Virus record (IMG/VR): IMGVR_UViG_3300045988_023664
Location: 1 to 57,697 of that record
Reading direction: 5' to 3' (one strand)
DNA: 57,697 bases
From: a virus
The stretch's first letter is position 1, and each line of letters opens with the position of its first letter. The translations under genes were made by a program, and so were the position numbers. The notes below the pieces were generated by a model. It was not told the origin of the DNA, searched no databases, and saw only the letters and a program-made list of their open reading frames with translations. Shown piece by piece: positions 810 through 57,697 of the stretch.

Positions 810-2735
810 TTATCCCTCCACAATCTCTAATTTCTCGCTATCATTGACAATCAGCATAATTAATTGGCTATCGACCATTTCAGCAACTTTCTTCTGATTA
901 GTGCTGTCAAGGCTCTCACTATCGTCTAAGATAATAGGCACTGACATACCGCTAATCTTCTGAATTGAGTTGCAAATATCAACTCTGCCTAAAATCCTGT
1001 TGCCCTTATTGCTCATAGTTGTAAGAATTGATTTTCCATTAACTGTAGGTATGCAAACTGACTTGTAACCGCCAGATTTGTTCAGTTCAAACAGCTTCCA
1101 CTTAACAAGCGAGAAGTGGCTGTTAATGCTGTCAGACAATGTTTCATTCTTCGCTTTGTCCAGTTCATCAAGCAAATCAAGGATTTTTTCGGCATTAGTC
1201 TTATTCTGTTCCTGTGTACGCTGTTCTGCCCTTAATTCTTCAAGTCGCTGTTCATCTGCTGCCGTATCAGACTTTGCAATCTGACTTTCACATTCTGCTA
1301 ACTGCTGCCTTAAATCATTTTCCTGTGCCTTTAATTCAGCCTTGACCTCCGATATGTCATTAGCTTTGTGCATAGCCTGTTCCTTTTCAGCTATCTGCTG
1401 TTCAAGTGCCTTGTACTCTTCTGCGGATGTCACATCAATTTCCTGTGGAAGTTCGAATAACTGCTTTTCAAGGTCTGCAATTTCTTTTTCCAGCTTCTTC
1501 TGATTAGCAATATTGTCTTTGTTGCATTTCTCTAACTTAGGTATCATATCTCTTGCATTATCAACATCTGCCTTAACTTCTAATCCATCCTTTTCAACCT
1601 TTGCCAGCCTGTCAGCCTTTGTCTTTTCAAATAAACTTCTAAGGCTTTCAATTTCTTCTGTTGGCAGTTCTCTATGGCAAGTAGGGCAAACTGCTGTATT
1701 CTCGTCAAACTTTTCTTCTTTAATCTTATTCCAAACATCAGCAAGTCTGTTTCTTTCTCTTGTGCCACTCTCAATGTCATTCTGATAGCCGTATATTTCA
1801 GAATTATTCTTCTGAATAGTATCAGCTATGTTGAAAAGATAGTCTTTCTTTTCAGAAATCTTGTCCTCAATCTCTCGCCTAGCCTTGATAGTGTCCTCAT
1901 TCGCCTTGCGTGATAAATCTCCCTGCTTAAACTTCAAATCGAGAATATCAGCACTAGCCTTATCGTATTCAGCTAACAGCTTGTCATTGTCTGTCTGCTT
2001 AGCCACGCAATCAGCAATCTGTTCTTTAAGGCTGTTTCTAAGCAGTTCAAGGTCAGATACATCAATATCAGATTTAATCTGAATATCTCTTTCCTTTTCC
2101 TTAATCTGTCCGTCAAGGATAGGTAAATCCTTTGTGATTTTGGTCTTGGTAGCCTTATTCATAGCAGATAATTCTTCTGCCGAATACTTCTCTAACAGCG
2201 GTACTAACTCTGCTGATTCAGCCTTAGAACGTGCTATATCAAGGTCTGTCACATTCTCAACAAGACTAAATAAGTATTCTCTCATTTCCGCAGGCTTCTG
2301 ATTAAGAAATGCGTTGATATTACTGCACATCTTGAATACACTCATATCAATGTCAAGATATGCGTTGAAGCCCTTTAATGTCTTAGGCACATCATTGACA
2401 AAATACTTGTTATCATCCTTATAACTGCTGCCATCCTTGCTATAAGTACGTTTCTGTACTTTCTTCATAGTTACTTCTTTTCCGTCAACATCAAGTGTTA
2501 GTTCAACACTTGTGTCCATATCATCAACTGATTTTCCGTCAACCTCTCTTCTGACAACCGGATTATCCTTTAACTCATAATCACAGTTAAATAAGCACCA
2601 CAGATATGCCGTGGCTATTGTTGACTTGCCTATGCCATTCTTGGCTATAATCTTTGTTATGTCGTAAAAATCAAACTCTGCGTGTGCGTAACACATAAAG
2701 TTTTCAAGTACTACCCTTTTTAAAGTTGCTCTCAT
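810..2735 (-). CDS. SbcC/Rad50-like SMC-type ATPase with coiled coil and CxxC zinc hook
   Basis: N-terminal Walker A (AKNGIGKSTI), about 400 aa of heptad-rich coiled coil with a central CPTCHREL hook, and C-terminal Walker B/D-loop (PIILDDSESLD). The ATG at 2735 is preferred over the TTG at 2741 (RBS GGAAAGGA). Confidence 0.75.
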   Translation of the reverse strand: MRATLKRVVLENFMCYAHAEFDFYDITKIIAKNGIGKSTIATAYLWCLFNCDYELKDNPVVRREVDGKSVDDMDTSVELTLDVDGKEVTMKKVQKRTYSKDGSSYKDDNKYFVNDVPKTLKGFNAYLDIDMSVFKMCSNINAFLNQKPAEMREYLFSLVENVTDLDIARSKAESAELVPLLEKYSAEELSAMNKATKTKITKDLPILDGQIKEKERDIQIKSDIDVSDLELLRNSLKEQIADCVAKQTDNDKLLAEYDKASADILDLKFKQGDLSRKANEDTIKARREIEDKISEKKDYLFNIADTIQKNNSEIYGYQNDIESGTRERNRLADVWNKIKEEKFDENTAVCPTCHRELPTEEIESLRSLFEKTKADRLAKVEKDGLEVKADVDNARDMIPKLEKCNKDNIANQKKLEKEIADLEKQLFELPQEIDVTSAEEYKALEQQIAEKEQAMHKANDISEVKAELKAQENDLRQQLAECESQIAKSDTAADEQRLEELRAEQRTQEQNKTNAEKILDLLDELDKAKNETLSDSINSHFSLVKWKLFELNKSGGYKSVCIPTVNGKSILTTMSNKGNRILGRVDICNSIQKISGMSVPIILDDSESLDSTNQKKVAEMVDSQLIMLIVNDSEKLEIVEG

Positions 2736-2758
2736 AAACAATATCCTTTCCTTATTAT

Positions 2759-2953
2759 TTAAACATTCATTACAAATACGCCATCTTCAATCTGGAAGTT
2801 ATCAACTATTATGTCTGCATAATACTCTGAACTCTTAGCTTCTTCAAACGAACCGTTAAAAACTGTTCCACGCAACGCTGACCATATCTGGCACATCGCA
2901 TATTCATCAAGAGCCATACTTGCTAACTCCCTAACTGTAATATCACTACACAT
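2759..2953 (-). CDS. Hypothetical protein (64 aa)
   Basis: ORF track entry 2759..2980. The ATG at 2953 has RBS GAGGAGGG 8 nt upstream. Confidence 0.55.
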   Translation of the reverse strand: MCSDITVRELASMALDEYAMCQIWSALRGTVFNGSFEEAKSSEYYADIIVDNFQIEDGVFVMNV

Positions 2954-3602
2954 CAGCTTCGCCCTCCTCTGCATAATCAATCTTGCTTACCGATACTTCA
3001 TAAGCAGTTCTTGTTTCAACTTCATTGTCGCTTATCTTCTTAGCGTATTCCCTGCTCTGGAATCTACCCTGAATCTGGATATGTTCCCCTGTTTCAAGTC
3101 CGCCTACAAATCTTGCATTTCTTCCCCATGCTATACATGGTATGTAATCTGACTTGCCATATGGTCTGTTTACCGCTACTAAGATATCTGCAATCTCTCT
3201 GCCCTTTGGAGTACATCTGTATATAGGTGGCTTACAGATATAAGCGTCAAGTATAACCATATTGGTATTATCTTCAAATGGTAATTCTTCTGAATCCTGT
3301 GTCAGCACTTCAAATTCTCTTGCAAAAACCGTTAGAATCAGCTTGCTCTTCATATTGTCAGTATGCTTATTGAAGCTTCTTATCTGTCCTAAAACCGCGA
3401 CAGCCTGTCCTACCTTGATTTCTCTAATATCAGTAAGTCTATCTGATATCATCACTGGTAACACATCTTCATTGCCACTTGTTCTTAAACACTTGAGCAT
3501 AAACACATAAAACCCCTCGCCAAGCACTTCATGTGAGTACTCTGGCTCTTTCTTAATTATCCCTATTAATGTGATATTGTTGTTATTAATTGCATTTTCC
3601 AT
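2946..3602 (-). CDS. OB-fold ssDNA-binding-like protein (two OB-like halves)
   Basis: The pattern NITLIGIIKKEPEYSHEVLGEGFYVFMLKCLRTSGNEDVLPVMISDRL...VGQAVAVLGQIRSFNK resembles Clostridial SSB-like or PriB-like OB-fold proteins. It lacks the acidic C-terminal tip of canonical SSB. Confidence 0.5.
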   Translation of the reverse strand: MENAINNNNITLIGIIKKEPEYSHEVLGEGFYVFMLKCLRTSGNEDVLPVMISDRLTDIREIKVGQAVAVLGQIRSFNKHTDNMKSKLILTVFAREFEVLTQDSEELPFEDNTNMVILDAYICKPPIYRCTPKGREIADILVAVNRPYGKSDYIPCIAWGRNARFVGGLETGEHIQIQGRFQSREYAKKISDNEVETRTAYEVSVSKIDYAEEGEADV

Positions 3603-4065: not shown

Positions 4066-4587
4066 TTACTTGTAGCAAAAGTACATGTTCTGCACTTTCT
4101 TATAAACGCCGCTTCCTTGTTTAAATTCAGCTTGATACAACACATTGCTAGGTATGTCATATCCGCTTATTAATAATTCTTCTGCTATTCTCCAACATCT
4201 TTCTGTTGGTTCTTTATAGAATCCGCTGTTTATAAGTTCTGTACATTGATATTGCCCTGGCTGATAAATAACTTCTTCAATGCTGTTAGGGAAATACTCA
4301 CTTCGTACCCGATTCAAAACAACAGCTCCTGCAAGATATAGCATTTCATCATCGTTGCATGTCGCTCCGCATTCACCCATCAGCAAATGTGCCATAAGCG
4401 ACAACTCATATTCATCAACACTTATCTCTCCAGTTTCAACCTTATAATCAACATGTGAGTTGTAGCATTCACTTAACACTGCACTCTGATGATTAATCTT
4501 AGCTTGCGGTTGTACCGGTCTTAGAATCAACGCTATAAGGCTGATTCCTGCCAGTGTTGCGGATATGTTAATTATCTTTTCTTTCAT
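4066..4587 (-). CDS. SleB/CwlJ-family cell wall hydrolase with an N-terminal membrane anchor
   Basis: An N-terminal hydrophobic segment followed by LLMGECGATCNDDEMLYLAGAVVLNRVRSEYFPNSIEEVIYQPGQY, which matches the Hydrolase_2 (SleB) core motif. Confidence 0.75.
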   Translation of the reverse strand: MKEKIINISATLAGISLIALILRPVQPQAKINHQSAVLSECYNSHVDYKVETGEISVDEYELSLMAHLLMGECGATCNDDEMLYLAGAVVLNRVRSEYFPNSIEEVIYQPGQYQCTELINSGFYKEPTERCWRIAEELLISGYDIPSNVLYQAEFKQGSGVYKKVQNMYFCYK

Positions 4588-4595
4588 ATCTTCTC

Positions 4596-5303
4596 CTACA
4601 TGTTTGTATCATGTACCACCTCAGCAAGTGCTATTGGCAGCAAATAGGTATCAATGAATTCATGTACATCAGCCAAGTATTTTCTTTTGATACTCTTGTA
4701 TGTCGCCACGCACCCGAATTCGCGTTTTAACTGCTTGTATATATCAGAATATACTGAACCGCGAATACCACCGTCTTTGTACGCATTGCTGTCCTTTCCG
4801 CCAAGTACTTCAATTCCTTTCTTTCTAACATGTTTCTGCACTTCTTCAATCTCACAGCCGTAAAGCGGAGTTTCTTCTTCGATACTGATTATCTTATCTT
4901 CAACCTTATCAACTCTCTCTGTGAGTTCTGTGTTGCCCTGTGCCAATAATCTAATCTGTTCAGATGTTGTCAAAGGCTTACTGTAACTTCCTGTCTTTCT
5001 GATTGATGGAAGAACCTCTGATGTAACCCAGTGTTTAAATCTCTTAGCGGATTCAAGTCTGCTCCCAAAAACTAAGGCATAAACACCAGATTCGTTAATA
5101 ACAGTCATACTCTGCTTTCCGCCAAGGGTGTCGATAGTGTCTACTCCCTTATCCTCGTCAAACACATGAGTAGCGATTGCATCTCTTGGATTTGCAAATC
5201 CTAGTGCTTTTGCAACATCTTTTCCAACAAAATATGTTTCATTATCCTTGGTAATGGTTCGGATTTCTCCGAACTCTGAATTGCTAAAAATCTGTAGCTC
5301 CAT
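4596..5303 (-). CDS. Bro-N domain antirepressor-like protein
   Basis: The N-terminus (LQIFSNSEFGEIRTITKDNETYFVGKDVAKALGFANPRDAI) is a typical Bro-N/KilA-N-type domain. The C-terminal half is ORF6C-like. ATG at 5303 is preferred (RBS GAAAGGA). Confidence 0.8.
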   Translation of the reverse strand: MELQIFSNSEFGEIRTITKDNETYFVGKDVAKALGFANPRDAIATHVFDEDKGVDTIDTLGGKQSMTVINESGVYALVFGSRLESAKRFKHWVTSEVLPSIRKTGSYSKPLTTSEQIRLLAQGNTELTERVDKVEDKIISIEEETPLYGCEIEEVQKHVRKKGIEVLGGKDSNAYKDGGIRGSVYSDIYKQLKREFGCVATYKSIKRKYLADVHEFIDTYLLPIALAEVVHDTNM

Positions 5304-5452
5304 AAACATTCCTTTCTAAATAATGTGTGATATATTCCTTTTAAGGTGCATTTGAGCAATTCTGCTCATTCCTATCTGTTGTAACTTGTAGAACTTTATA
5401 TTTATTGATACAATAAAGAAGTGATGGTAGACACTTTCCGAAAGGAGATTGT

Positions 5453-5590
5453 ATGGATACTGTCATAGCATTGTGCGTATCAGCGGTTGGCTCATACTTC
5501 TGTGGCGTAGACTTCTGCACCCTGTACGCTCTTATTTCTATATCAATAGAATTAAATAAATATGCTAAAGACAAAACTGCCAATCGGTAG
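5453..5590 (+). CDS. 45-aa hydrophobic Cys-rich peptide (not in the ORF track)
   Basis: Strong RBS AAAGGAGA 5 nt before the ATG at 5453. Sequence: MDTVIALCVSAVGSYFCGVDFCTLYALISISIELNKYAKDKTANR. It has its own candidate promoter (TTGTAG-17-TACAAT) and a terminator at 5611-5632. Confidence 0.5.
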   Translation: MDTVIALCVSAVGSYFCGVDFCTLYALISISIELNKYAKDKTANR

Positions 5591-5610
5591 GTAATTCACA
5601 CTCGATGCAA

Positions 5611-5632
5611 ACAGGACACCACTCCTGTTTTG
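5611..5632 (+). terminator. Intrinsic terminator (ACAGGA-N6-TCCTGT followed by TTTT)
   Basis: A 6-bp GC-containing stem followed by a T run, 20 nt after the stop of the 45-aa ORF. Confidence 0.55.
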
Positions 5633-5771
5633 AAGAACCAATGAATACCACATTATAAGAGATTTGTAACTATTTACCGCTACCATCACTTTTCTATTGC
5701 ATCAATATCAAAAATTCTAATCCATTTGTGCTATAATCCTCTTATCTTTAATATTGAAAAGAGGTGAGATT

Positions 5772-6316: not shown

Positions 6317-6649
6317 ATGCAATACACACCAAATTGCCCAAATATGGATAAATTATTTCCACAGCCCAAAATTCCTGAAATTGAAGTGCCTACATATGAA
6401 AAAGGCAAATCTCCATATGAGCTTTTAGAAAGTCAGTCTGCTTATCTTGAAAAGACAAGCAAGGAACTTCACGATATGGCTCAATCCGCTAAATCCCAAG
6501 CTGATTCAGCAAAGGAAATTGCCGAAAGTTCCAAAACACAAGCTGATGTTGCGTTAAAAACATCAAGCAAAGCTGATATTAAAGGTTGGATTGCGGTAAT
6601 CATATCCATACTAGCTTTTGTATGGAGCATCATTTCTCATTTCATATAA
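6317..6649 (+). CDS. Tail-anchored membrane protein (coiled-coil ectodomain plus C-terminal TM helix)
   Basis: ATG at 6317 after GGAGGT. It ends in the hydrophobic tail WIAVIISILAFVWSIISHFI. It lies upstream of the repressor on the same strand, so it is a candidate superinfection-exclusion or lysogeny-expressed gene. Confidence 0.6.
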   Translation: MQYTPNCPNMDKLFPQPKIPEIEVPTYEKGKSPYELLESQSAYLEKTSKELHDMAQSAKSQADSAKEIAESSKTQADVALKTSSKADIKGWIAVIISILAFVWSIISHFI

Positions 6650-16927: not shown

Positions 16928-18658
16928 TCAATACGGAAAGGCTGCTTGACCTGTCATATTTGTATAGCTGTTAGCTTTATCTTGTACCATTGTAAATAGC
17001 TTATCCGCGTCACCTTGTAATGTTATATTTACATTGTTGTTAGCTTCTGACATAGCTGCTACAACCGCATTGTAAACCGCTGGATAAACTGCATTAGCAA
17101 TACCTTGTGTAATTTCCTGTTGGTTAGCTACCGCTGTTCTTCCGTCCATAGTACCAACCATTTCAGGACCTACTTCATTTGCGACAAACAATTGCCCTTT
17201 ACCTGGGAATCCGCCGTTTGCATACCAATCAATACTGACTTTTGGTACTTTAGGCGGTGCAAGACTAAATTCTCCGTCAATTTTAAAGTGTGGTGTATCA
17301 ATGTGTGGAAATTCAAGTCCTAAATCATTCCACCACTGCTTAAAGCTGTTCCAAGCGTTCTGTATCTTAGTTTTAAAATCTTCGATAGCCACAGAAATGC
17401 GCTGAAGTGATGGCTTGCTATCCCACCAATCTACAATATCATCCCACTTTCCTTGGATTCCTTTTTTAATTCCATCGGCTAAGTTTTCCCATTTTTCCTT
17501 AGTAAACCACGGTCTCACATCATTGCTCCACCAAGAAACAATTGCGAGACTATTCCACCAACCAACGATTGAGTCCCACTTTTCTTGTATTCCTAATTTC
17601 ATTCCATCAACAGCGTCAACCCATGTTTCTTTTTCAAACCATGGTGTTACATCATTGTTCCACCAATTTACAATAGCTGTATTATTCCACCAGTCTGTAA
17701 TTTCATCCCACTTTTCTTGTACAGCAAGTTTAATATCTTCTACAGCGTCTTTAGCTTTTTTTACATACTTGCTGTCTTCTATGCTTGCTGAAAATTCTGT
17801 AATAAATTTAATAGTAACAACCCCACCAGGAACAATTAAAGAAGCTAAGATACCAGCAATTCCCCATTTGTCATATATTTCTTGGTAAGCACCCCATAAT
17901 AGCTTTATTGCAGATAAAGCTAAATCGATTGTTAAATCAGATACTTTTACTGCTATTTTACCTAAATTTATTCCTTCAATAAATTTAATTATATCTTTAC
18001 CTAATTGCTCCCAATCTACAGAACTGATAAAGCCATCTGCAAAATCTAATGTTTTGCAAATGGCTGTTGTAATTGCTTCTCCTGTTTTTTTCCACGGAAC
18101 AGCATTTATCCCTTTGTTTACTTGCTTACCTGCGTAAGTGCCTATTCCGTACCAGTCACCTTTTTTTATGGCTTTCTCTATCTTATCAGCCCACGCAATA
18201 GCCGAATTTTCCATATTGGCAAATGCTTTATTCCAAGCCGCTTCATAATCAGCCGCCGCCTTAGTAATATCATCTGTTAAGTCAATACTGCTACCGCCGC
18301 CACCGCTTGAACCCTTGCTTGAGCTTGTATCGTCCTGTAATTTATTTATTTCATCAAATCCCATAAGGGATAATGTAGCTTTCTTTGCTGAATCTGCTAC
18401 ATTTTGGTATCCGTCTGAAATATCTTCTAATCCGTCAGAAGTATCTTTGTAACCGCTTTGTCCGAAGCTCTCAAAGTCAATCTTAACGCCCATTAAAGAA
18501 GCAAGGTTGACTAATAATCTTTTGATTGCAATAGTTACTCCGTTTACTATTGGCATAACCTTTGAAAGAATTGGGATAAATAACTGTCCTGCTACCATTC
18601 CGACTTCTTTCATGTTGTTGCTAAACTGGCGTAACATATTACTTGGGGAATTAATTGT
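16928..18658 (-). CDS. Tape measure protein, proposed exon 2
   Basis: Starts at TINSPSNMLRQFSNNMKEVGMVAGQLFIPILSKVMPIVNG, the hydrophobic TMP core. Periodic Trp repeats (WWNN..V.PWF.KE.W) follow. The ORF track extends it upstream to 18769 only because the frame happens to be open. Confidence 0.7.
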   Translation of the reverse strand, partial: TINSPSNMLRQFSNNMKEVGMVAGQLFIPILSKVMPIVNGVTIAIKRLLVNLASLMGVKIDFESFGQSGYKDTSDGLEDISDGYQNVADSAKKATLSLMGFDEINKLQDDTSSSKGSSGGGGSSIDLTDDITKAAADYEAAWNKAFANMENSAIAWADKIEKAIKKGDWYGIGTYAGKQVNKGINAVPWKKTGEAITTAICKTLDFADGFISSVDWEQLGKDIIKFIEGINLGKIAVKVSDLTIDLALSAIKLLWGAYQEIYDKWGIAGILASLIVPGGVVTIKFITEFSASIEDSKYVKKAKDAVEDIKLAVQEKWDEITDWWNNTAIVNWWNNDVTPWFEKETWVDAVDGMKLGIQEKWDSIVGWWNSLAIVSWWSNDVRPWFTKEKWENLADGIKKGIQGKWDDIVDWWDSKPSLQRISVAIEDFKTKIQNAWNSFKQWWNDLGLEFPHIDTPHFKIDGEFSLAPPKVPKVSIDWYANGGFPGKGQLFVANEVGPEMVGTMDGRTAVANQQEITQGIANAVYPAVYNAVVAAMSEANNNVNITLQGDADKLFTMVQDKANSYTNMTGQAAFPY

Positions 18659-26680: not shown

Positions 26681-28117
26681 TTATTCGATAACTGCCTTAT
26701 TTTGCTGATTATTATTAAGTTGATTAACTATCTCTTGTGCTTTTTGTTCTTGTGCTTCCACATCATCAATAGTCTTGTATATATTATCAAGATATGATTT
26801 TGATAAAAGGAATGTCTTTTCTGCATCTCCCCATAAACCAACTGTCTTAATTGCTATAAGTGGATGTATGCCAGCTTGTAAAAGTAAAAGCAACGTCTGC
26901 GCCTTGGTGTACATATTGTCTTGTGGACTGTGATTTATCTGTACATCAAAATCTCTAACCGATAATTTTAAGTCTTCTCCTGCAAGTCTTAGAATATTAA
27001 GAACCACTACCGCTAACCGCTTTTCGCACGATTTAACAATAGGGTCTTTCAGTTTTGCTCTTGTCTTGGAGAAATCCCATCCGTTTCTTAACTCGACCGC
27101 TCCTTGCGTATCTCCGCCTGTGTTGCCCTGTTTGTTTGGTATAGCCAATATAGATAATGTGTTATCCCACAAATCTTCCTTAGCAACTTGGCATTGTGTC
27201 TGATTAAGCTCTTGTGTCATAATTTCGACATCCGACTTATTGTCTTTATTGATGGACTTAACTGTAAGAGCGTGGTTCATTTTCATTTTTGCAAATGTTT
27301 CTTCATCAACTTCGCAATTTACAAACTTAACCCAGTATTCAACAAACTGCTGTATGCTATCCATTCTGTTAGACTGCATATTATTAATAGAATCCAACAT
27401 ACCTACAACAAGCTCAATATCAGATATTCTTTCGTGGTTATTAGGAAACTCAACGATAGGGATTTCACCATATGTATGTAGTTTTGCTTCAACTACTTTG
27501 CTGTCAACAATTCTAAAAGACATAGTGTCGGAAAAAGCCATTTTATACCAATTCCCATCCTCGTCTTTGAGCTCTTGTACAACAAGCATAGGTTCTTCTG
27601 TGCTTTCATTGTAAACAACGTAAGTATTCATTGGTGTAGGTGCTACAATTCTGAATGGTACATCTCCATTTTTAGGTTGAACCGCCTTAAATGATGTTCC
27701 TGTTGCTGACTGCCACTCTCCAGCTTTAATATCTTTCTCCTGCTTATTGGCATCCGCCATAAAATCATTGAGTATATCAACCGCCTTGTTGATAGCTTCA
27801 TCATCTTTGCGGCTAATAAACTGGATTGGCTCGCCATATGTTTGTCCTACCTTAAACTGGACAATTTCATATGCGTGATTCTCAACAATCTTGTTTGTAA
27901 TATCTTCATTGGTCAGCTTATGCCTGTATAATATTGGTTGGTCTCCCTTGTAATAATCCCACAGATACTTAATAACAGGCTTATTCCAATTAAATACGCC
28001 TATAGTACTTCCAATAACCTTAACAACATTGTTAGCAGTTATTGTATCTACATTCGTGTATGCAATTTTTCTACCATAACAACCTCTAACAAGGTCTTGA
28101 AAATACATTGTGTTCAT
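26681..28117 (-). CDS. Portal protein (SPP1 gp6-like)
   Basis: A 478-aa protein downstream of terL with portal-like composition. Confidence 0.75.
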   Translation of the reverse strand: MNTMYFQDLVRGCYGRKIAYTNVDTITANNVVKVIGSTIGVFNWNKPVIKYLWDYYKGDQPILYRHKLTNEDITNKIVENHAYEIVQFKVGQTYGEPIQFISRKDDEAINKAVDILNDFMADANKQEKDIKAGEWQSATGTSFKAVQPKNGDVPFRIVAPTPMNTYVVYNESTEEPMLVVQELKDEDGNWYKMAFSDTMSFRIVDSKVVEAKLHTYGEIPIVEFPNNHERISDIELVVGMLDSINNMQSNRMDSIQQFVEYWVKFVNCEVDEETFAKMKMNHALTVKSINKDNKSDVEIMTQELNQTQCQVAKEDLWDNTLSILAIPNKQGNTGGDTQGAVELRNGWDFSKTRAKLKDPIVKSCEKRLAVVVLNILRLAGEDLKLSVRDFDVQINHSPQDNMYTKAQTLLLLLQAGIHPLIAIKTVGLWGDAEKTFLLSKSYLDNIYKTIDDVEAQEQKAQEIVNQLNNNQQNKAVIE

Positions 28118-34013: not shown

Positions 34014-34106
34014 GTTTACCTGCCTTTCTGATAACTGCCTTATTAACAAAACAACAAACAGGCACTAAGGCTTGTGCTTTTCGGTAGCTAACCTAGTTTG
34101 TTGTAA

Positions 34107-34178
34107 TCGGATAGATAGGACTTGAACCTATGACTACTTGAATGAATCAAGCGTTGCTCCCAACTGAACTACTATCCG
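34107..34178 (-). tRNA. tRNA-like gene with apparent anticodon UCA (opal-reading/suppressor-like), atypical D and anticodon arms
   Basis: Manual fold: perfect 7-bp acceptor (CGGATAG/CTATCCG), T arm ATAGG-TTCAAGT-CCTAT, anticodon arm GCTTG-ATTCATT-CAAGT. U at position 37 and a short or irregular D arm. Confidence 0.5.
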
Positions 34179-34294
34179 AAAAGTGGTAGCAGTAGTGGTT
34201 ACTGCCACTTTGAAATTGCTTTTGCCACTACTTTGTGCAATTTCATGCGGACTTTCTACCGCTTACGGCAAGGTTAACCCCTGTCGTAAGTTAG

Positions 34295-34377
34295 CGCCGA
34301 TATCGTGAATCGAACACGAACAACATTTCTGTTGGATAGCTTAGCGAGCTACTGGAATACCATTATCCCATATCGGC
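34295..34377 (-). tRNA. tRNA-Ser(GCU), type II with a long variable arm
   Basis: Acceptor GCCGATA/TATCGGC, T arm TCGTG-TTCGATT-CACGA, variable stem CAACA/TGTTG, anticodon loop UCGCUAA (C at position 33). Confidence 0.7.
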
Positions 34378-34676
34378 AATTTTATTCGCCATACCTATGA
34401 TTCTTTAAGTTTTGTGGTTTCTGGATCATCAAATATTATTCTCATAGATATGGCTTAATCGAGACTTCATGCCTAGCTGATATTGCACAGTATGGAAACC
34501 TTAGCATACTTCCGAAATACTTTCTTTTCACCGCTTCACTGGATTTCGAAAATACAATAATCCGCTCGGCAAGTTGAAAAACAATTATTCTTTTAATCCC
34601 CATAAGGGCATCCCATACAACAATCATCAAAACTCCCTCGCTTCGCGTAATTATTTGTTCTAGGTTTTAACCTATA

Positions 34677-34748
34677 GCTGGCAAGGTGGGAATCGAACCC
34701 ACGACAAGTCGGTTAACAGCCGACTGCTCTACCACTGAGCTACAAGCC
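34677..34748 (-). tRNA. tRNA-Asn(GUU)
   Basis: GTAGCTCAGTGGTAGAGC D arm, anticodon arm GTCGG-CTGTTAA-CCGAC, T arm GTGGG-TTCGATT-CCCAC. The acceptor stem has two adjacent U-U mismatches. Confidence 0.8.
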
Positions 34749-35062
34749 AAGATTTGAGGGTACTACGATTCAAGCACTCTCTGATAAAATTACATACAAG
34801 AGGGGTTGTATGTAATACCGCCTGTAACGGCTATCAAGAAACAAGAACAGAAACAATAAAATATTAGGGGTGTTTTGATAAGGAGTGCTTCTTGATAAGT
34901 TGGTTTTCACATGGCTATGTATATACACGCCAAACCCTCTCAAGCGGTCTTGCACCGCTTTTAACTGAACAAAATCCAAAGAGGTACATGAAAGGAGGAC
35001 TGTTCTGTGTAAAATGCAAAAACACAATAATGAACAGCCAAACAAATAAAAAGAAAAATAAA

Positions 35063-35134
35063 CTACCCTTATGGGAATCGAACCCATATTGCAGGAATCA
35101 AGCTCCTGTGCATTAACCATTATACTAAAGGGCA
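35063..35134 (-). tRNA. tRNA-Gln(UUG)-like
   Basis: Canonical 72-nt cloverleaf: acceptor TGCCCTT/AAGGGTA, T arm ATGGG-TTCGATT-CCCAT. The anticodon loop is GCUUGAU, giving UUG with C at position 33. Confidence 0.65.
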
Positions 35135-35218
35135 ATAGTGGCTATTCCCAGTATGCATTCGCCACAAGTCGCAGTGTACTATCCTTTGCAACCATTATAC
35201 TTTCAATGACTGACACGA

Positions 35219-38694: not shown

Positions 38695-39027
38695 ATGAGA
38701 AGAACAAACAGCAAAGAAGTCAAAGCAGCGGTTAGAAACTATTTAACAGAAGTTGCACAGAGTGAAGAGCTTAACACAATTAAGGATATCAAGGATAAGT
38801 TTACAAATGAGTACGGTTGGGCGGTTGCAAGGCTTGGGGAACGTAACGCCTGTATAGAATGGCTGAGAGGTTTAGGCGTTAGCGTTGATTATAGTTATTA
38901 TGACATCATCCAGCTTATGTCTGAATGGTTAGACGAAAGCACAGAAGAAGCTGAAAAATGGCTTGATAAGCGTGGTGATGGTCTTTACTGGGATTTATTA
39001 GCAAGGGAGATTTTAGCAAGCAAATAA
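38695..39027 (+). CDS. Hypothetical acidic protein (110 aa)
   Basis: ORF behind the plus-strand promoter. Confidence 0.6.
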   Translation: MRRTNSKEVKAAVRNYLTEVAQSEELNTIKDIKDKFTNEYGWAVARLGERNACIEWLRGLGVSVDYSYYDIIQLMSEWLDESTEEAEKWLDKRGDGLYWDLLAREILASK

Positions 39028-39070
39028 TTAGCAAGGTTGGCTTTTCCGGGGTTCGATTCCCCGGCTTGCT
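39015..39070 (+). other. tRNA-like acceptor/T-arm minihelix 1
   Basis: AGCAAGC...CCGGGG-TTCGATT-CCCCGG-CTTGCT has a perfect T-loop consensus and a complementary acceptor-like stem. The 5' strand overlaps the stop codon of the preceding CDS. Confidence 0.55.
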
Positions 39071-39113: not shown

Positions 39114-39416
39114 GTGAAATATGTACACTGGCTAAAAATTGACGGATATTCAAAACTTGAAGAAACTGCTTTACAATTTCAATCTATCGAAAATTATCTA
39201 AAAGCCTATCCAAAGGCTAAAGCTATGTTATATCAATATGATAATGGCTCATTTAATTGGATAGTGCGTTTAGAATGTGAACAGTGTTACATTGATTTAG
39301 ATTTAGATGTCAATAGCAGCTCAACAAGATTAGAAAGATTTTCATCTAAACCAAAGAACATAGGAAGAGAAAGGATTTTCAAATTTCCAGAACATTACAA
39401 AAAATATATTGAATAA
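39114..39416 (+). CDS. Hypothetical protein (100 aa)
   Basis: GTG at 39114 after GGAGGTGG. Confidence 0.55.
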   Translation: MKYVHWLKIDGYSKLEETALQFQSIENYLKAYPKAKAMLYQYDNGSFNWIVRLECEQCYIDLDLDVNSSSTRLERFSSKPKNIGRERIFKFPEHYKKYIE

Positions 39417-39440
39417 GGGCGTACAATCTGCGCCCTTTTT
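39417..39440 (+). terminator. Intrinsic terminator (GGGCG-N9-CGCCC followed by TTTTT)
   Basis: Read directly, right after the stop codon. Confidence 0.7.
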
Positions 39441-39441
39441 G

Positions 39442-39481
39442 GCTTGCTGTGGTTTGGCTGGTTCGATTCCAGCCACAAGCA
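39442..39481 (+). other. tRNA-like acceptor/T-arm minihelix 2
   Basis: GCTTG(C)TG-N7-GCTGG-TTCGATT-CCAGC-CACAAGC-A forms a 7-bp acceptor-like stem (one bulge) plus a canonical T arm, with no D or anticodon arms. Confidence 0.55.
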
Positions 39482-39483
39482 TT

Positions 39484-39510
39484 AAGCATATATTTTTATA
39501 TGCTTTTATT
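39484..39510 (+). terminator. Intrinsic terminator (AAGCATATA-TTTT-TATATGCTT followed by TTATT)
   Basis: Read directly. Confidence 0.55.
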
Positions 39511-39544
39511 GTACCTTGAAAAATTAATATAATAATGCTATGCT

Positions 39545-40049
39545 TATATATAGGGCTTTTGCACTTTTAGGTGTACAAGTGTACCCAGTTGGGGCGGCGT
39601 GTGTTCTGGTATATCTTCCAGATCTAGCAACAACTTCCACAACTTTCAAGGGCATATTATACCCATTTTATACAATACATTTAAAAGCGTTTTAAGGCTG
39701 TTTGTTCTGTAGGCTTAGAAGTCTACACCGACACAATAAAACCGCCGTACAGGGCAAATCACAAAGCCAAAACAAGCACGAACCGCAGCCGGTCAAGTTC
39801 GCATAAAACGCTTTAATCTATTAAAGTTTTTCATCAATTTTTCAGGGCAAATCTGAACAAAATCGGGAGCAAAAATTGAAATTCTGTGTAACCGATTTTT
39901 GGATTCCAAAATTGCATATGACGGGGGTATTTGAAACGGCGCATTATAATTTTGTGGGAAAATTTTTTCAATTTTTAAAATATAATTTGAACGAAATCTG
40001 AACCAAATTTTGAGATTTTTTAAAATTGAAATTGTGAATACAAAAAGTC
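39545..40049 (+). ncRNA. Candidate about 0.5-kb non-coding transcript (strand uncertain), convergent with cas5
   Basis: No ORF of 60 aa or more on either strand across 39417-40098. There is a candidate promoter TTGAAA-17-TGcTATGCT at 39516-39544 and a long-range 11-bp pairing AAAGCGTTTTA (39684) with TAAAACGCTTT (39804). Internal hairpins are present and a terminator lies at 40050-40095. Confidence 0.3.
39849..40033. repeat. Two degenerate 35-40-bp direct repeats (39849-39883 and 39994-40033): AAATCTGAAC...AAAATTGAAAT(T). A third related end, GTATTTGAAAC, lies at 39928-39937. ACGGGGGTA occurs twice.
   Basis: Read directly. Exact shared blocks are aaatctgaac (10 nt) and aaaattgaaatt (12 nt). 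Confidence 0.75.
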
Positions 40050-40095
40050 AACCCACGGGGGTAAAGAAAAATTTTACCTATATTCCGTGGGTTTT
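40050..40095. terminator. Bidirectional terminator hairpin (AACCCACGG...CCGTGGGTT followed by TTTT)
   Basis: A 9-bp outer stem with an inner GGTAAA/TTTACC stem, 4 nt from the cas5 stop codon. Confidence 0.65.
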
Positions 40096-40098
40096 AAA

Positions 40099-40797
40099 TT
40101 AGTTTATAAAAATAATTGGCTTATCATCATCAAAAAGATTGCTCACAACTTCTTGTCCTTTATCCACTAAATAACAAGAAACTTTCTGGAATCGCCTAAG
40201 ACCCTTAATGATTTCGTATTTGTTATTAATTCTATAGATAGTTCCCGCAAAATTGCCTTTATTAACAGGAATATAAGATTGCATAGCAAGTGGAGCTGAT
40301 ATGGATTTGTCAAGCTCCTTAAGTTCTACAATATCCACTGCTTCAATCTTACATAAATCACCATACTCACCTAATGATGGATATACTGGTGGGTTTAGTA
40401 ACGCACGGTATATATCATCTATGTCACTATCATCAGCTTTGATGTATATAGTTGTATATAAATCAACTAGCATTAGATGATATTTAACTGTACTAACCCA
40501 GCCGGTGTGGCTTCCGTCTGCATGATCTGTTATAATATCCCAACGATTAAGCATTTCATCGCTAATTTTGTTGAAATTATAGCCACCGTGCCATTCTTTT
40601 TGCACCTTAGTATTATAAATTCCTTTGCCAGTAACAAAATAATCTAATTTATGATACATTTTCCATTGACACATTGAATGAATAAACCCATTAACTGTAC
40701 TAAATGGTGGCAAAGGGTAGCAATCTGCACCTTTTGGCGCTGATGGATTATTGAATCTAGCCATTTCTTGATACATTTTTAATCTTACAACTCTCAT
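40099..40797 (-). CDS. cas5: Stand-alone CRISPR-associated Cas5 homolog (type I-B, Cas5t/Tneap-like), 232 aa
   Basis: MRVVRLKMYQEMARFNNP....CYPLPPFSTVNGFIHSMC at the N-terminus, and ...LLNPPVYPSLGEYGDLCKIEAVDIVEL...YIP...GTIYRINNKYE...R.F.KV..YLV. These match the Cas5t hallmarks I recall (YPLPPYSTViG... and LGRsEDl..i.ev.iVEL). The ATG at 40797 follows GAGG. The N-terminal extension in the ORF track is rejected. Confidence 0.7.
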   Translation of the reverse strand: MRVVRLKMYQEMARFNNPSAPKGADCYPLPPFSTVNGFIHSMCQWKMYHKLDYFVTGKGIYNTKVQKEWHGGYNFNKISDEMLNRWDIITDHADGSHTGWVSTVKYHLMLVDLYTTIYIKADDSDIDDIYRALLNPPVYPSLGEYGDLCKIEAVDIVELKELDKSISAPLAMQSYIPVNKGNFAGTIYRINNKYEIIKGLRRFQKVSCYLVDKGQEVVSNLFDDDKPIIFIN

Positions 40798-40916
40798 AAT
40801 AAAACCTCTAAAATAAAATAAGTTGCACCTATACAAAAATGTATCAATGCAACTTTCCACTATGGTTCTATTAAGGTAAAATGATATATTAATTATCAAT
40901 TGTTTACATCTATTAA

Positions 40917-40945
40917 ATAATAGCATTTTTAAATATTATTGTCAA
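40917..40945 (-). promoter_or_regulatory. Near-consensus promoter for cas5 (TTGACA-17 nt-TATTAT)
   Basis: Read on the minus strand. A leader of about 110 nt with a 7-bp hairpin (AGTTGCA...TGCAACT) follows. Confidence 0.55.
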
Positions 40946-41075: not shown

Positions 41076-41395
41076 TATCCCACTCTCCTAACCACTCCAA
41101 GTATCATATCAACAATGTCAAATACTTCATCTCCATAAGTTGCTACAAAATCACATAAAATTTCTTCTGTCTCAATCGGCAAATAAATATCATAAGACAT
41201 ACAGACGGTGTGGCAGATTTCGTGTATCAGCACTTTGCGTTGCATAAATCCACGCAAAGCATTTGATAGATAAATTGTGTGTGTATTTCTATCGGTTACA
41301 CCTAGTACAGAAACATTGTCTGACCGCTTTAATTCGCCTGAATTTGAATTTTTATATTGCACTTGCCACATTGTGCCATTAATGCTAAAAATCAT
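41075..41395 (-). CDS. ImmA/IrrE-like zinc metallopeptidase (short form)
   Basis: HEICH (HExxH) preceded by ...LGVTDRNTHTIYLSNAL. Confidence 0.6.
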   Translation of the reverse strand: MIFSINGTMWQVQYKNSNSGELKRSDNVSVLGVTDRNTHTIYLSNALRGFMQRKVLIHEICHTVCMSYDIYLPIETEEILCDFVATYGDEVFDIVDMILGVVRRVG

Positions 41396-44813: not shown

Positions 44814-46061
44814 CTAATAATTAATAGCATTATTAACTTGCTCAATCTTAGTTCTATCAGTCTTATTACTGTAAATGTAATATTTTCTTGTTGTCTCAAT
44901 GCTTGTATGCCCCATCATTTCTGTTATAACAGTGTCGCTCACGCAATTATCATACAATGCAACACTGTATGCCCGGCGGACTTTGTGTGTGGAACGATAA
45001 TTAATGTCTAGTGCCTTGCATATCTTATGCAACTTTCTGTTAAATGCTTGTTCCTTTATACGCTCTCCCTTTTCTTCAAACATATAAGTTCCAAAAGGAT
45101 TTAATCTTCGAATTGCCTTAACAGTATTTACAGCTTTATCTGGAATAATTATATCTCTTAATCCTGCGTCAGATTTAGGATAGTCGCTTACTATCTTAGC
45201 CCATTTCCCATTTTCATCTCTGACCTTAATTTCTGTTCTTTGTATAGAAATATAATGCTTAATAGTTCCATCTTTCAGTACAGTGTTGTGAATATCAGAA
45301 AACTTAAGTGATGATAACTCGCCAGCTCTCATTCCACACTCAAACATAAGTAATAATCCCAGGCTCCTTATATCATATCGTTGCCATAGATATTCTGTGA
45401 TTCTTGGAATTTCATCCTCGAAATACACCTGTTCCTCTTTCTTTTTCACATTTTTAGTAAAAGCTCTGCGTGATAAATCCAAGTCTCCCATAAATTGTGT
45501 GATACTTAGATTAGAATACCCCTTTTTCTTGGCATATTTAAAAATGCCATTAATAAGGATTCGCATATCAGAATATGCCTTATGTGTAAGCTTACATTCG
45601 GCAATAACAGTCTTAATAAAGCATTCTAAGTCATCTTCTGTAATGTACTTGATTTTCTTATCTGCCATGTGATATGCTTCATTAGTGAAAAATCTGGCAA
45701 AGTTATCATTATACTTATCATATGACTGTTTCTTGATTTCGTGATAATCAAGTTTTTGGTCTACCCATTCCTTGAATACAGCCTTAACTAAAGGTTCATT
45801 AGCAAGTTTCTTGTAGTGTTCCACAATCCCATCTTCAAGAGACTCTTGCGTTGAACGCTTTAGCAGCTTTCTGCCGCTTGATGTGCTTTCGTCTGGCAAG
45901 TATGTATACCACTTCTTATCCTTTCCTTGCCAGATTTCATTATTGTGTGCTTTTAAATATTTTTTCCTTTCGTTCATTTCAATTTGTTTTTGAACATCGT
46001 CACGAGAGATAATATCATTCTCTAGTACATAATTCAACAATTCCTTGTCTGTTAGCTCCAC
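44814..46061 (-). CDS. int: Tyrosine recombinase / phage integrase
   Basis: The C-terminal catalytic region ...HKVRRAYSVALYD...MGHTSIETTRKYY carries the R..H..R..Y signature context. Confidence 0.9.
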   Translation of the reverse strand: MELTDKELLNYVLENDIISRDDVQKQIEMNERKKYLKAHNNEIWQGKDKKWYTYLPDESTSSGRKLLKRSTQESLEDGIVEHYKKLANEPLVKAVFKEWVDQKLDYHEIKKQSYDKYNDNFARFFTNEAYHMADKKIKYITEDDLECFIKTVIAECKLTHKAYSDMRILINGIFKYAKKKGYSNLSITQFMGDLDLSRRAFTKNVKKKEEQVYFEDEIPRITEYLWQRYDIRSLGLLLMFECGMRAGELSSLKFSDIHNTVLKDGTIKHYISIQRTEIKVRDENGKWAKIVSDYPKSDAGLRDIIIPDKAVNTVKAIRRLNPFGTYMFEEKGERIKEQAFNRKLHKICKALDINYRSTHKVRRAYSVALYDNCVSDTVITEMMGHTSIETTRKYYIYSNKTDRTKIEQVNNAINY

Positions 46062-57150: not shown

Positions 57151-57697
57151 TTAGTTTTCCTCCACTTCTTTAAATTCGCCATCTACCAGTTTATAGAATA
57201 TATCTTCCTTGATACGCTCTCCGTCAACGTATTCGGTCTTAACGCATTTAGGAATCCAAATGCAGAAGCCTTTTTCATCTTTATCACCCGTTCTTACCCA
57301 TTCAGCAAGTGTTATCCAGCTACCTTTTTTAGCTTTTGCCTGCGACTGATAGCCTGCTGCCATAACAACTGAATGTTTACCCTTAGATGTTATCCGTGCG
57401 TAATTTCCACTTGAACCTATCTGTGCGTAATCTCCACTTGAACCTATCTTTGCGGAATATCCACTTGAACCTATCTTTGCGGAATATCCACTTGAACCTA
57501 TCTGTGCGGAATATCCACTTGAACCTATCTGTGCGTAATCTCCACTTGAACCTATCTTTGCGGAATATCCACTTGAACCTATCTTTGCGGAATATCCACT
57601 TGAACCTATCTGTGCGGAATATCCACTTGAACCTATCTGTGCGGAATCTCCACTTGAACCTATCTGTGCGGAATATCCACTTGAACCTATCTGTGCG
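57151..57697 (-). CDS. C-terminal part of the repeat protein that starts at 605 (9-aa repeats plus a conserved C-domain)
   Basis: The frame is open from 57697: ...SAQIGSSGYSAKIGSSGDYAQIGSSGNYARITSKGKHSVVMAAGYQSQAKAKKGSWITLAEW... to the stop at 57151. The ORF track lists only the ATG-initiated end, 57151..57363. Confidence 0.8.
   Translation of the reverse strand, partial: AQIGSSGYSAQIGSSGDSAQIGSSGYSAQIGSSGYSAKIGSSGYSAKIGSSGDYAQIGSSGYSAQIGSSGYSAKIGSSGYSAKIGSSGDYAQIGSSGNYARITSKGKHSVVMAAGYQSQAKAKKGSWITLAEWVRTGDKDEKGFCIWIPKCVKTEYVDGERIKEDIFYKLVDGEFKEVEEN
57391..57697. repeat. Tandem array of about 11 units of the same 27-bp repeat as at 1-243
   Basis: Read directly. The last unit is truncated after 24 nt by the window end. 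Confidence 0.95.

Follow-up and report, generated by a model that had tools for sequence, protein, structure and literature searches.

What use does a phage have for one lone gene of the CRISPR machinery? The question is raised by a cas5 gene in IMG/VR virus record IMGVR_UViG_3300045988_023664 (positions 1 to 57,697), a stretch of 57,697 nucleotides that we refer to in full as the window. Cas5 is the subunit that binds the 5' handle of the CRISPR RNA (crRNA). We find that the gene is preceded by a leader that reads as a degenerate CRISPR mini-array, with a spacer matching a cas-regulating mini-array of Lachnospira eligens, a species of the host genus. Gene and leader probably form a bipartite unit against type I-B systems, in which a crRNA-like RNA of the Cracr class and a Cas5 homologue together sabotage and silence the host's I-B machinery. 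In order of transcription, the cassette reads as follows.

40917-40945, minus strand: sigma-70-type promoter, with the -35 box TTGACA at 40945-40940, a 17-nt spacer and an extended -10 box, TG-TATTAT, at 40922-40917.
40902-40909, minus strand: mimic of a crRNA 5' handle, ATGTAAAC; the host I-B repeat ends in ATGTAAAT, with an 8-nt handle.
40878-40901, minus strand: pseudo-spacer of 24 nt, AATTGATAATTAATATATCATTTT.
40848-40877, minus strand: repeat-like element of 30 nt (the second pseudo-repeat), ACCTTAATAGAACCATAGTGGAAAGTTGCA, whose own 3' handle is degenerate.
40810-40853, minus strand: terminator- or attenuator-like leader hairpin, GTTGCAttgATACA-loop-TGTATaggTGCAAC (40853-40822), followed by the T-rich tract TTATTTTATTTT (40821-40810).
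40805-40809, minus strand: Shine-Dalgarno (SD) sequence of cas5, AGAGG.
40099-40797, minus strand: viral Cas5b homologue (vCas5), 232 residues, stop codon included in the coordinates, N-terminus MRVVRLKMYQ.
40050-40093, minus strand: hairpin resembling an intrinsic terminator, followed by GACTTTTTG (-18.5 kcal/mol; z -3.07).

The NCBIfam model TIGR01895 (cas_Cas5t/Cas5b) aligns with residues 1-218 of vCas5 over model positions 1-204 of 217 (E = 3.9e-24), at a score of 85.4 bits that lies below the curated cut-off of 96.7 bits; by sequence, vCas5 is a Cas5b homologue and not a canonical member of the family. The Pfam model Cas_Cas5d matches the N-terminal 40 residues only, below threshold (E = 0.022). 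Since a sequence search of the PDB with a profile of 55 vCas5 sequences returned no matches, we compared folds. An AlphaFold2 model built on the 55-sequence alignment (predicted local distance difference test score 94.1; predicted template modeling (TM) score 0.87) was searched against the PDB with Foldseek. Its best matches, with TM-scores of 0.5-0.6, are chains of type I Cascade complexes, among them the I-B CRISPR-associated transposon chain 8fcj_A (E = 1e-7), and the others belong to I-E, I-A, I-C and Synechocystis I-B complexes. A tblastn search of the window with the I-B proteins of Lachnospira hominis and Listeria found cas5 and no other cas gene. The initial annotation, made from the letters alone, had recognized both a Cas5 and the lack of any companion cas gene, and on both counts the searches agree with it.

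The gene is maintained across a family of phages. Searching IMG/VR for vCas5 gave 114 matches, from which we kept 80 contigs, mostly of 55-60 kb, and in these vCas5 is 90-100% identical at the amino acid level. The reading frame is intact in all 26 distinct comparable alleles, with a median dN/dS of 0.11, and is under purifying selection. This ratio and the presence of vCas5 in more than 100 related contigs rule out a decaying remnant, as well as the chimeric contig that the initial annotation had named as a possible flaw. Among deposited phages, nucleotide relatives amount to two tiny matches, and two "Listeria phage" relatives of the protein proved to be host DNA with a genuine I-B operon.

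vCas5 is 33-34% identical to Lachnospira Cas5b and 33-36% identical to Lachnospiraceae Cas5b. The invariant Cas5 core motifs PLPPFS and SLG and the residue R201 are retained. A near-invariant N-terminal motif of genuine Cas5b, NYRKPxSF (defined by our own comparison, in which Y, R and K each occur in 30-32 of the 32 genuine sequences sampled), reads RFNNPSAP in the window and is gone throughout the viral clade. Besides this loss, the clostridial vCas5 clade is marked by a GxGxxN...WxGG insertion and by W203F, and it lacks the C-terminal SEKEGG insert of Lachnospiraceae Cas5.

A precedent for such a protein exists, although the initial annotation was aware of no orphan-Cas5 counter-defense system. 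AcrIB3, a Cas5 homologue on Listeria plasmids and prophages, inhibits type I-B immunity, co-purifies with Cascade and blocks its binding to target DNA (Katz et al., bioRxiv 10.1101/2023.06.24.545427). According to a later review (PMC13131331), it displaces Cas5, is missing a Cas8b-binding hook of approximately 18 residues and has an additional loop for which contact with Cas7 is predicted. The phage family itself is in Table S3 of Katz et al., a list of 358 orphan viral cas genes, where IMGVR_UViG_3300045988_054677 is given as a type I-B cas5 with host Lachnospira (bioRxiv 10.1101/2023.06.24.545427). That gene is 96% identical to the window's vCas5 (our locus L009), and entries 3300007353_000004 and 3300029054_000005 belong to the same family. 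Like vCas5, AcrIB3 is a full-length Cas5b homologue standing alone on a mobile element (237 against 232 residues), and the two align over their whole length with 27% identity (E = 4e-29). They differ in sequence affinity and setting. vCas5 is closer to Lachnospiraceae Cas5b (33-36%) than to AcrIB3 (27%), whereas AcrIB3 is itself 38-41% identical to Listeria Cas5, so the two are probably independent captures; AcrIB3 also sits in a multi-gene anti-CRISPR (acr) operon and has no mini-array. In the region of the Cas7-contacting loop, vCas5 reads DHADGSHTGW where host Cas5 has EDG-EK-Y-G, about 2 extra residues compared with about 5 in AcrIB3. By analogy with AcrIB3, inhibition by subunit mimicry, one of the roles first suggested for the gene, is the best-supported role for vCas5.

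The window encodes a portal, a major capsid protein, a terminase, a GH25 lysin and a tyrosine integrase (at 44817-46061), the gene set of a temperate tailed phage. Two sites in it match spacers of the type I-B array of L. hominis NSJ-43.

27597-27634, minus strand: protospacer 1, comprising 27631-27597 and the 5' protospacer-adjacent motif (PAM) CCA at 27634-27632, inside the portal gene; identical (35/35) to the first, leader-end spacer of the array.
18515-18553, minus strand: protospacer 2, comprising 18550-18515 and a 5' CCA PAM; identical (36/36) to another spacer of the same array.

Two perfect, CCA-flanked matches imply that the Lachnospira I-B system targets this phage, and they identify the gut bacterium Lachnospira as its host. 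A check proposed in the initial annotation, whether the host possesses a type I-B system, thus came out positive. Among 80 genomic relatives of vCas5 (26-36% identity), 77 lie in I-B cas loci with cas7 and/or cas3 alongside, most of them with a full cas6-cas8b-cas7-cas5-cas3 set; these loci include L. hominis NSJ-43, L. eligens BIOML-A1 and uncultured Lachnospira.

The leader of cas5 has an anatomy of its own. Its promoter, placed correctly from the start, is the best site in the region (11/12 with the upstream TG) and is kept in 80 related loci. Together with the 7 nt that follow it (TATTATTTAATAG), the -10 box is similar to the 5' portion of the host repeat and looks like what is left of a first repeat copy. 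Eight nt past the -10 box, at the expected transcript start, the handle begins, and from this promoter geometry the transcript would begin at the handle or within a base or two of it. Beyond the pseudo-spacer, the core of the repeat-like element (TTAATAGAACCATAGTGGAAAGT, 40874-40852) is identical to the L. hominis I-B repeat core at 21 of 23 positions on the cas5 strand. It is the sole such site in the window, and none of 100 shuffles yielded one with three or fewer mismatches. The element is identical in 79 loci, each time just upstream of cas5, and would supply the Cas6-binding 3' part of a crRNA-like RNA. The order of promoter, 7 nt, handle, spacer, repeat-like element, hairpin with U-tract, SD and ATG is nearly invariant in these 79 related loci. 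From this anatomy we identify the leader (40909-40848) as a degenerate one-spacer CRISPR mini-array.

The leader can also fold. A 117-nt leader RNA is predicted to form a structure of -28.3 kcal/mol (z -4.5) whose main helix is the 40853-40822 hairpin, and single-sequence folds place an equivalent hairpin and U-run 3' of the second pseudo-repeat in three diverged loci (L170, L173 and L175). RNAalifold found no consensus among the leaders of four lineages because their hairpins do not align. In the minimum free energy fold, GGTTTTATTA around the SD pairs at 10/10 positions with TAATAGAACC of the repeat-like element. The corresponding pairing in L173 is again 10/10, with compensatory changes (TAATAGTTCC with GGAATTATTA); in L175 it is 7/10, and L170 and L179 have none. 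Tentatively, this helix between repeat-like element and ribosome-binding site (RBS) could couple vCas5 translation to Cas6 processing.

Several early statements about the cassette can be refined at this point. The terminator proposed after the stop codon is supported by the predicted hairpin and its T-run, and no regular array (at least three regular repeats with 30-40-nt spacers) was found by TRF, Rfam and repeat searches of the window, which contains one degenerate unit only. A hairpin in the leader had likewise been noted correctly; the leader as a plain 5' untranslated region (UTR) does not hold, as it appears to be a crRNA-like gene aimed at the host cas6 promoter. Similarly, the cassette was described as stand-alone, which is true of its single cas gene but not of the whole, the leader being a mini-array. 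The idea that the gene might reprogram host Cascade points in the right direction, but the partner envisaged for it, the adjacent repeat-bearing non-coding DNA, gives way to the leader RNA. That downstream DNA (39420-40050) has no match to the host repeat and holds short repeats at chance level only.

Where does the pseudo-spacer come from? In a search of 1.2 Mb, handle and pseudo-spacer together were 25/26 identical to L. eligens locus L112, positions 6469-6444 (E = 3.9e-6). There, some 150 nt upstream of L. eligens cas6, lies a degenerate mini-array in divergent orientation, and the first 17 nt of the pseudo-spacer (17/17) are those of its spacer. About 80 nt from the L. eligens mini-array, on the other strand, lies CCA followed by AATTGATAATTtATATTGACA (L112:6538-6564), which shares 15 of the first 16 spacer positions: 11 contiguous ones and four more, with the mismatch at position 12. 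Position 12 is a flipped-out position in type I complexes. The window's own pseudo-spacer fits CCA followed by AATTGATAATTtATAT at this cas6 promoter at 14 of 15 non-flipped positions. The target covers the -35 box (TTGACA, 6556-6561) of the TTGACA-17-TAATAT promoter before L. eligens cas6.

The same correspondence is found with other hosts. L. hominis has an equivalent arrangement with a different spacer and the site CCT followed by ATTAGATAATT...TTGACA, and it is this site that a second pseudo-spacer allele seen among the phages, AATAGATAA[C/T]TATTATATC, matches, at 13-14 of 15 non-flipped positions. Further viral pseudo-spacers fit the cas6 promoters of Butyribacter, Eubacterium and Faecalicatena at 14-15 of 15 positions. 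In one prophage (L098), pseudo-spacer 3 of the array matches CCA followed by TTAATTATTGTTTAT beside the cas6 promoter of an I-B locus (L166) in the same metagenome-assembled genome. Judged by these matches, the viral pseudo-spacers track host cas6 promoters. Within the phage, the pseudo-spacer has no self-target with a CCN PAM. On the host side, mini-arrays before cas6 are common in Lachnospiraceae I-B loci: about 20 genome loci (L093-L162) of Lachnospiraceae and Clostridia I-B systems have a divergent degenerate mini-array roughly 100-300 nt upstream of cas6, with the pattern TATAAT-N6-ACATTTTGGAATGTAAAN, about 22 nt and TTAATAG...GGAA. Their pseudo-spacers differ between species, an indication that the host regulators are diversifying.

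The association of orphan cas5 genes with mini-arrays extends beyond close relatives of the window. Its leader anatomy recurs upstream of vCas5 genes 53-66% identical to the window's. The spacing of -10 box, 7 nt and ATGTAAAN is also present in the diverged loci L173, L175 and L178, and a complete first repeat is present in L170 and L179. Orphan cas5 genes sharing 33-100% identity have mini-arrays in three relative positions:

Upstream of cas5: loci L189-L196.
Downstream on the same strand: L091 (two pseudo-spacers), L098 (four), L177 (two), L178 and L187 (two), L183 (one) and L188 (one).
Convergent with cas5: L095.

A motif search for such elements gave 80 matches in 1.3 Mb of phage loci, 79 of which adjoin cas5. 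No Cracr-like element was found beside AcrIB3, beside the L. monocytogenes plasmid cas5 or beside the type of vCas5 with a helix-turn-helix (HTH) gene directly upstream.

Three further layouts were seen around orphan cas5 genes. In the cultured Fusobacterium phage vB_FnuS_FNU4 (L267, OQ808964; locus 1801-3150), a gene annotated "putative Cas5" encodes 355 residues, of which the N-terminus alone aligns to AcrIB3; after the gene comes a mini-array of three repeats (ATGTATTACTAGATTAGAATTTAAAT) in convergent orientation, and a repeat-like element and a hairpin lie upstream of it. In L081-L085 and L181-L183, a small open reading frame (ORF) precedes an HTH_3 gene (137-139 aa) that overlaps the vCas5 start. 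This mobile HTH_3-vCas5 unit is inserted beside the lysis cassette, at the ends of siphovirus- and P2-like prophages that are unrelated to one another, in a layout like that of acr and aca genes, and L183 additionally has a downstream mini-array. In L170-L172 and L175-L176, diverged relatives of the cassette stand beside an ArdA anti-restriction gene and small HTH_26 genes, or beside an integrase, a setting consistent with an anti-defense island.

The RNA half of the cassette resembles known viral elements. Cracr RNAs are viral mimics of the crRNA-like CreR and CreA RNAs of the host and act in synergy with Acr proteins (Liu et al., bioRxiv 10.1101/2024.10.29.618823); the criterion applied to them is that at least 9 PAM-proximal nt are shared with a host CreR/CreA spacer (Liu et al., bioRxiv 10.1101/2024.10.29.618823). 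By its sequence features the leader belongs with them. It has degenerate repeat units and a short pseudo-spacer on a phage, outside any CRISPR-cas locus; its spacer is copied from a host mini-array that regulates cas genes, and the 17/17 shared nt exceed the 9-nt criterion; it has a PAM-flanked, partly complementary target at a cas promoter; and a candidate protein Acr is linked to it, with relatives of the cassette carrying multi-spacer arrays. In contrast, the experiments of Liu et al. concern types V-A, I-E and I-F, with I-B candidates listed only, and neither Cas5 nor viral cas genes are mentioned there, whereas the partner protein in the window is a homologue of a Cascade subunit. The window RNA, moreover, appears to start directly at the handle.

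Host CreR RNAs have been described (Liu et al., bioRxiv 10.1101/2023.03.10.532045), and Shmakov et al. (bioRxiv 10.1101/2023.03.03.530964) described I-B mini-arrays that lie upstream of cas6 and are directed at a PAM-flanked site in front of it; copies of them occur in the Clostridium phages c-st and phiSM101 and in a Fusobacterium myovirus. The Lachnospira loci agree with these in having the mini-array upstream of cas6, the target between array and cas6, and an adjoining I-B PAM; the PAM-proximal spacer part identical between host and phage is 17 nt in the window and 15 nt in Shmakov et al. That work deals with Clostridium perfringens and describes no association with a viral cas5, whereas the hosts and phages here are Lachnospiraceae and theirs; a tblastn search of deposited Clostridium phages found no Cas5 relative. 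Racr RNAs, finally, are solitary repeat RNAs with neither 5' handle nor targeting spacer, which lead to Cas6-Cas7 sub-complexes lacking Cas5 and Cas8 (Camara-Wilpert et al., PMC10651486), and RacrIC1 is carried with AcrIC5 on one bicistronic RNA (PMC10651486). The leader is like them a repeat-mimicking phage RNA able to share a transcript with a protein Acr, but unlike them it has a handle and a promoter-matching spacer. Neither the papers of Katz, Liu, Shmakov and the Racr authors nor broader text searches yielded a mention of the linkage of cas5 and mini-array, a scope outside which Table S2 of Liu et al. lay.

Building on the homology, anatomy, host link, promoter match and genetic linkage observed, we infer the transcription start, Cas6 processing, incorporation of vCas5 into Cascade and the resulting inhibition as follows. 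A crRNA-like RNA would be transcribed from the near-consensus promoter, on the same transcript as cas5, starting at the 5' handle and carrying the pseudo-spacer derived from host CreR and then a repeat-like element that host Cas6 could bind. Loaded in host Cascade, it would compete with immune crRNAs and steer the complex to the CCA-flanked site over the cas6 -35 box, tightening repression of the whole cas operon. vCas5, translated from a read-through or processed transcript, would by analogy with AcrIB3 occupy the Cas5 position at the crRNA 5' handle and disable interference by Cascade. In a CreR-regulated host, poisoning of Cascade would release a compensatory burst of cas expression, which the RNA would prevent.

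Several points weigh against this bipartite scheme, for which the whole case is computational. One is internal to it: AcrIB3 blocks DNA binding and a guide RNA needs DNA binding, so that, if vCas5 acted like AcrIB3 on every complex, the RNA could not repress the promoter, and a discrimination mechanism or only partial poisoning is required. The tight linkage of gene and RNA suggests selective poisoning, or else a vCas5 that supports binding but not the action of Cas3. Size-based discrimination of the AcrIF24 type is not obviously applicable, since the pseudo-spacer (24 nt) is not shorter than that of the host mini-arrays (about 22 nt). The hook is absent from vCas5 when compared with Listeria Cas5, yet the hook region of L. 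eligens Cas5 is only about 3 residues longer. Most transcripts may end at the hairpin and U-tract that separate the RNA from cas5, a mini-array is missing from some orphan Cas5 lineages (the HTH-upstream type and AcrIB3 itself), and the spacer allele of the window mismatches at two seed positions with the promoter of L. hominis NSJ-43, the very strain whose spacers match the phage.

The requirement for DNA binding could be satisfied differently if vCas5 were a helper subunit. It would then bind a viral triphosphorylated 5' handle not made by Cas6 and nucleate host Cas7, Cas8b and Cas6 into a hybrid complex able to repress the cas6 promoter but not to trigger Cas3, and inhibition would come mainly from silencing and subunit competition. 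Of the first repeat, it is the handle that the phage has kept, cas5 and mini-array are tightly linked in all three relative arrangements, the core motifs are intact, and selection on the complementarity of pseudo-spacer and promoter implies that DNA binding must work with vCas5 present. AcrIB3, however, the only tested Cas5-derived viral protein, blocks DNA binding, the loss of NYRKPxSF looks like a defect rather than a specialization, Cracr RNAs of other CRISPR types use host proteins only, and some vCas5 lineages do without a mini-array; we consider a helper role unlikely, though more probable than the other alternatives. A similarly low probability attaches to the broader proposal that vCas5 and the guide-like RNA are not two separate inhibitors but one co-evolved machine, a Cas3-dead hybrid Cascade silencing the host cas operon from the operon's own promoter; here, Cas6 processing of the RBS-pairing repeat-like element might gate vCas5 translation. 

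Two further accounts are much less probable. Arrays that lie downstream of cas5 or converge on it cannot be a 5' UTR there, and many lineages have arrays so placed, with a promoter and terminator of their own and 2-4 pseudo-spacers. This argues against vCas5 as a lone decoy, essentially the model of the initial annotation, whose leader would be a cis-regulatory 5' UTR (for vCas5 autoregulation or Cas6-dependent unmasking of the RBS) with no guide function. Such an account would explain why the repeat-like element pairs with the SD and AUG region at 10/10 positions in the window and in L173, and it would agree with AcrIB3 acting alone; but the pairing is absent from L170 and L179, the pseudo-spacers track host cas6 promoters with correct CCN PAMs adjoining, and we judge it very unlikely. 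Virus-targeting viral mini-arrays are also known (cited in Shmakov et al., bioRxiv 10.1101/2023.03.03.530964), and the leader might accordingly be a conventional mini-CRISPR used against competing phages or for regulating phage genes, with Cas5 left over from a captured cas locus. Against this, the pseudo-spacer is matched best by the regulatory mini-array of the host and the cas6 promoter, with no PAM-flanked site in the phage itself; with 24 nt against 35-36 the spacer is short, and its repeats are degenerate; and vCas5 is intact in 26/26 alleles and under purifying selection. We give this account hardly any weight. A Cracr-class RNA paired with a Cascade-disabling Cas5 homologue remains the reading we prefer.

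Other features of the window concern the phage at large. A 27-nt tandem repeat is common to both ends (1-244 and 57391-57697; about 20 copies in total), and when the ends are joined it forms part of a minus-strand ORF with 9-residue repeats (xIGSSGxSA); the genome is thus probably circularly closed or permuted, with the cut falling within a gene for a repeat protein. A 92%-identical copy of the phage occurs within a long bacterial contig (L086, a 407-kb metagenome contig, about 4300-5700), directly after genes for a STAS protein, an anti-sigma kinase and an 85-residue Sigma70_r2 fragment. These neighbors suggest a prophage in or beside a sporulation-type sigma factor gene (a spoIIA-like operon).

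A cluster of four tRNA genes lies at 34038-35135 on the minus strand. One has the anticodon UCA, which reads UGA (tRNA-SeC according to ARAGORN), and is a possible suppressor tRNA, with no sign of recoding seen; directly adjoining it is an Rfam match to the int-alpA RNA (34038-34103; 53.8 bits). Two minihelices resembling a tRNA acceptor stem and T-arm (GGTTCGATTCC loops) are found at 39030-39070 and 39445-39481 on the plus strand, each just 3' of one of the region's only two plus-strand ORFs (38695-39027 and 39114-39416). Neither is called as a tRNA by ARAGORN, one is a weak mascRNA-like Rfam match, and they could be processing signals or remnants of attachment sites. Two ORFs upstream of the cassette, 41078-41395 on the minus strand encodes a 106-residue protein that contains an HEICH motif and gives a weak Peptidase_M78/IrrE-like match (E = 1.4e-4); several relatives show this gene in synteny with cas5. 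PHROGs and Pfam searches of the genes neighboring cas5 gave nothing informative beyond this match.

Each half of the cassette belongs to an anti-CRISPR class already known, and it is the linkage of gene and RNA that appears undescribed. A mimic of a Cascade subunit needs the complex to fail, and a mimic of a guide RNA needs it to bind DNA. Their co-occurrence across many lineages, in three gene arrangements, implies that some mechanism of compatibility or discrimination exists, which would be new for type I-B. Lachnospira and a phage with perfect spacer matches provide a concrete and abundant human-gut pair in which to study it, and the cassettes offer natural designs of short-guide, promoter-started crRNAs for type I-B tools. 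For genome analysis, a simple rule follows: the surroundings of an orphan cas5 should be checked for degenerate mini-arrays, as screens that drop loci near predicted arrays, or that seek arrays alone, miss such cassettes. The linkage spans bacterial phyla, from Lachnospiraceae to Fusobacterium. Should vCas5 and its RNA prove to be one co-evolved machine, this would be the first virus to supply a structural subunit that turns a host CRISPR effector into its own repressor.

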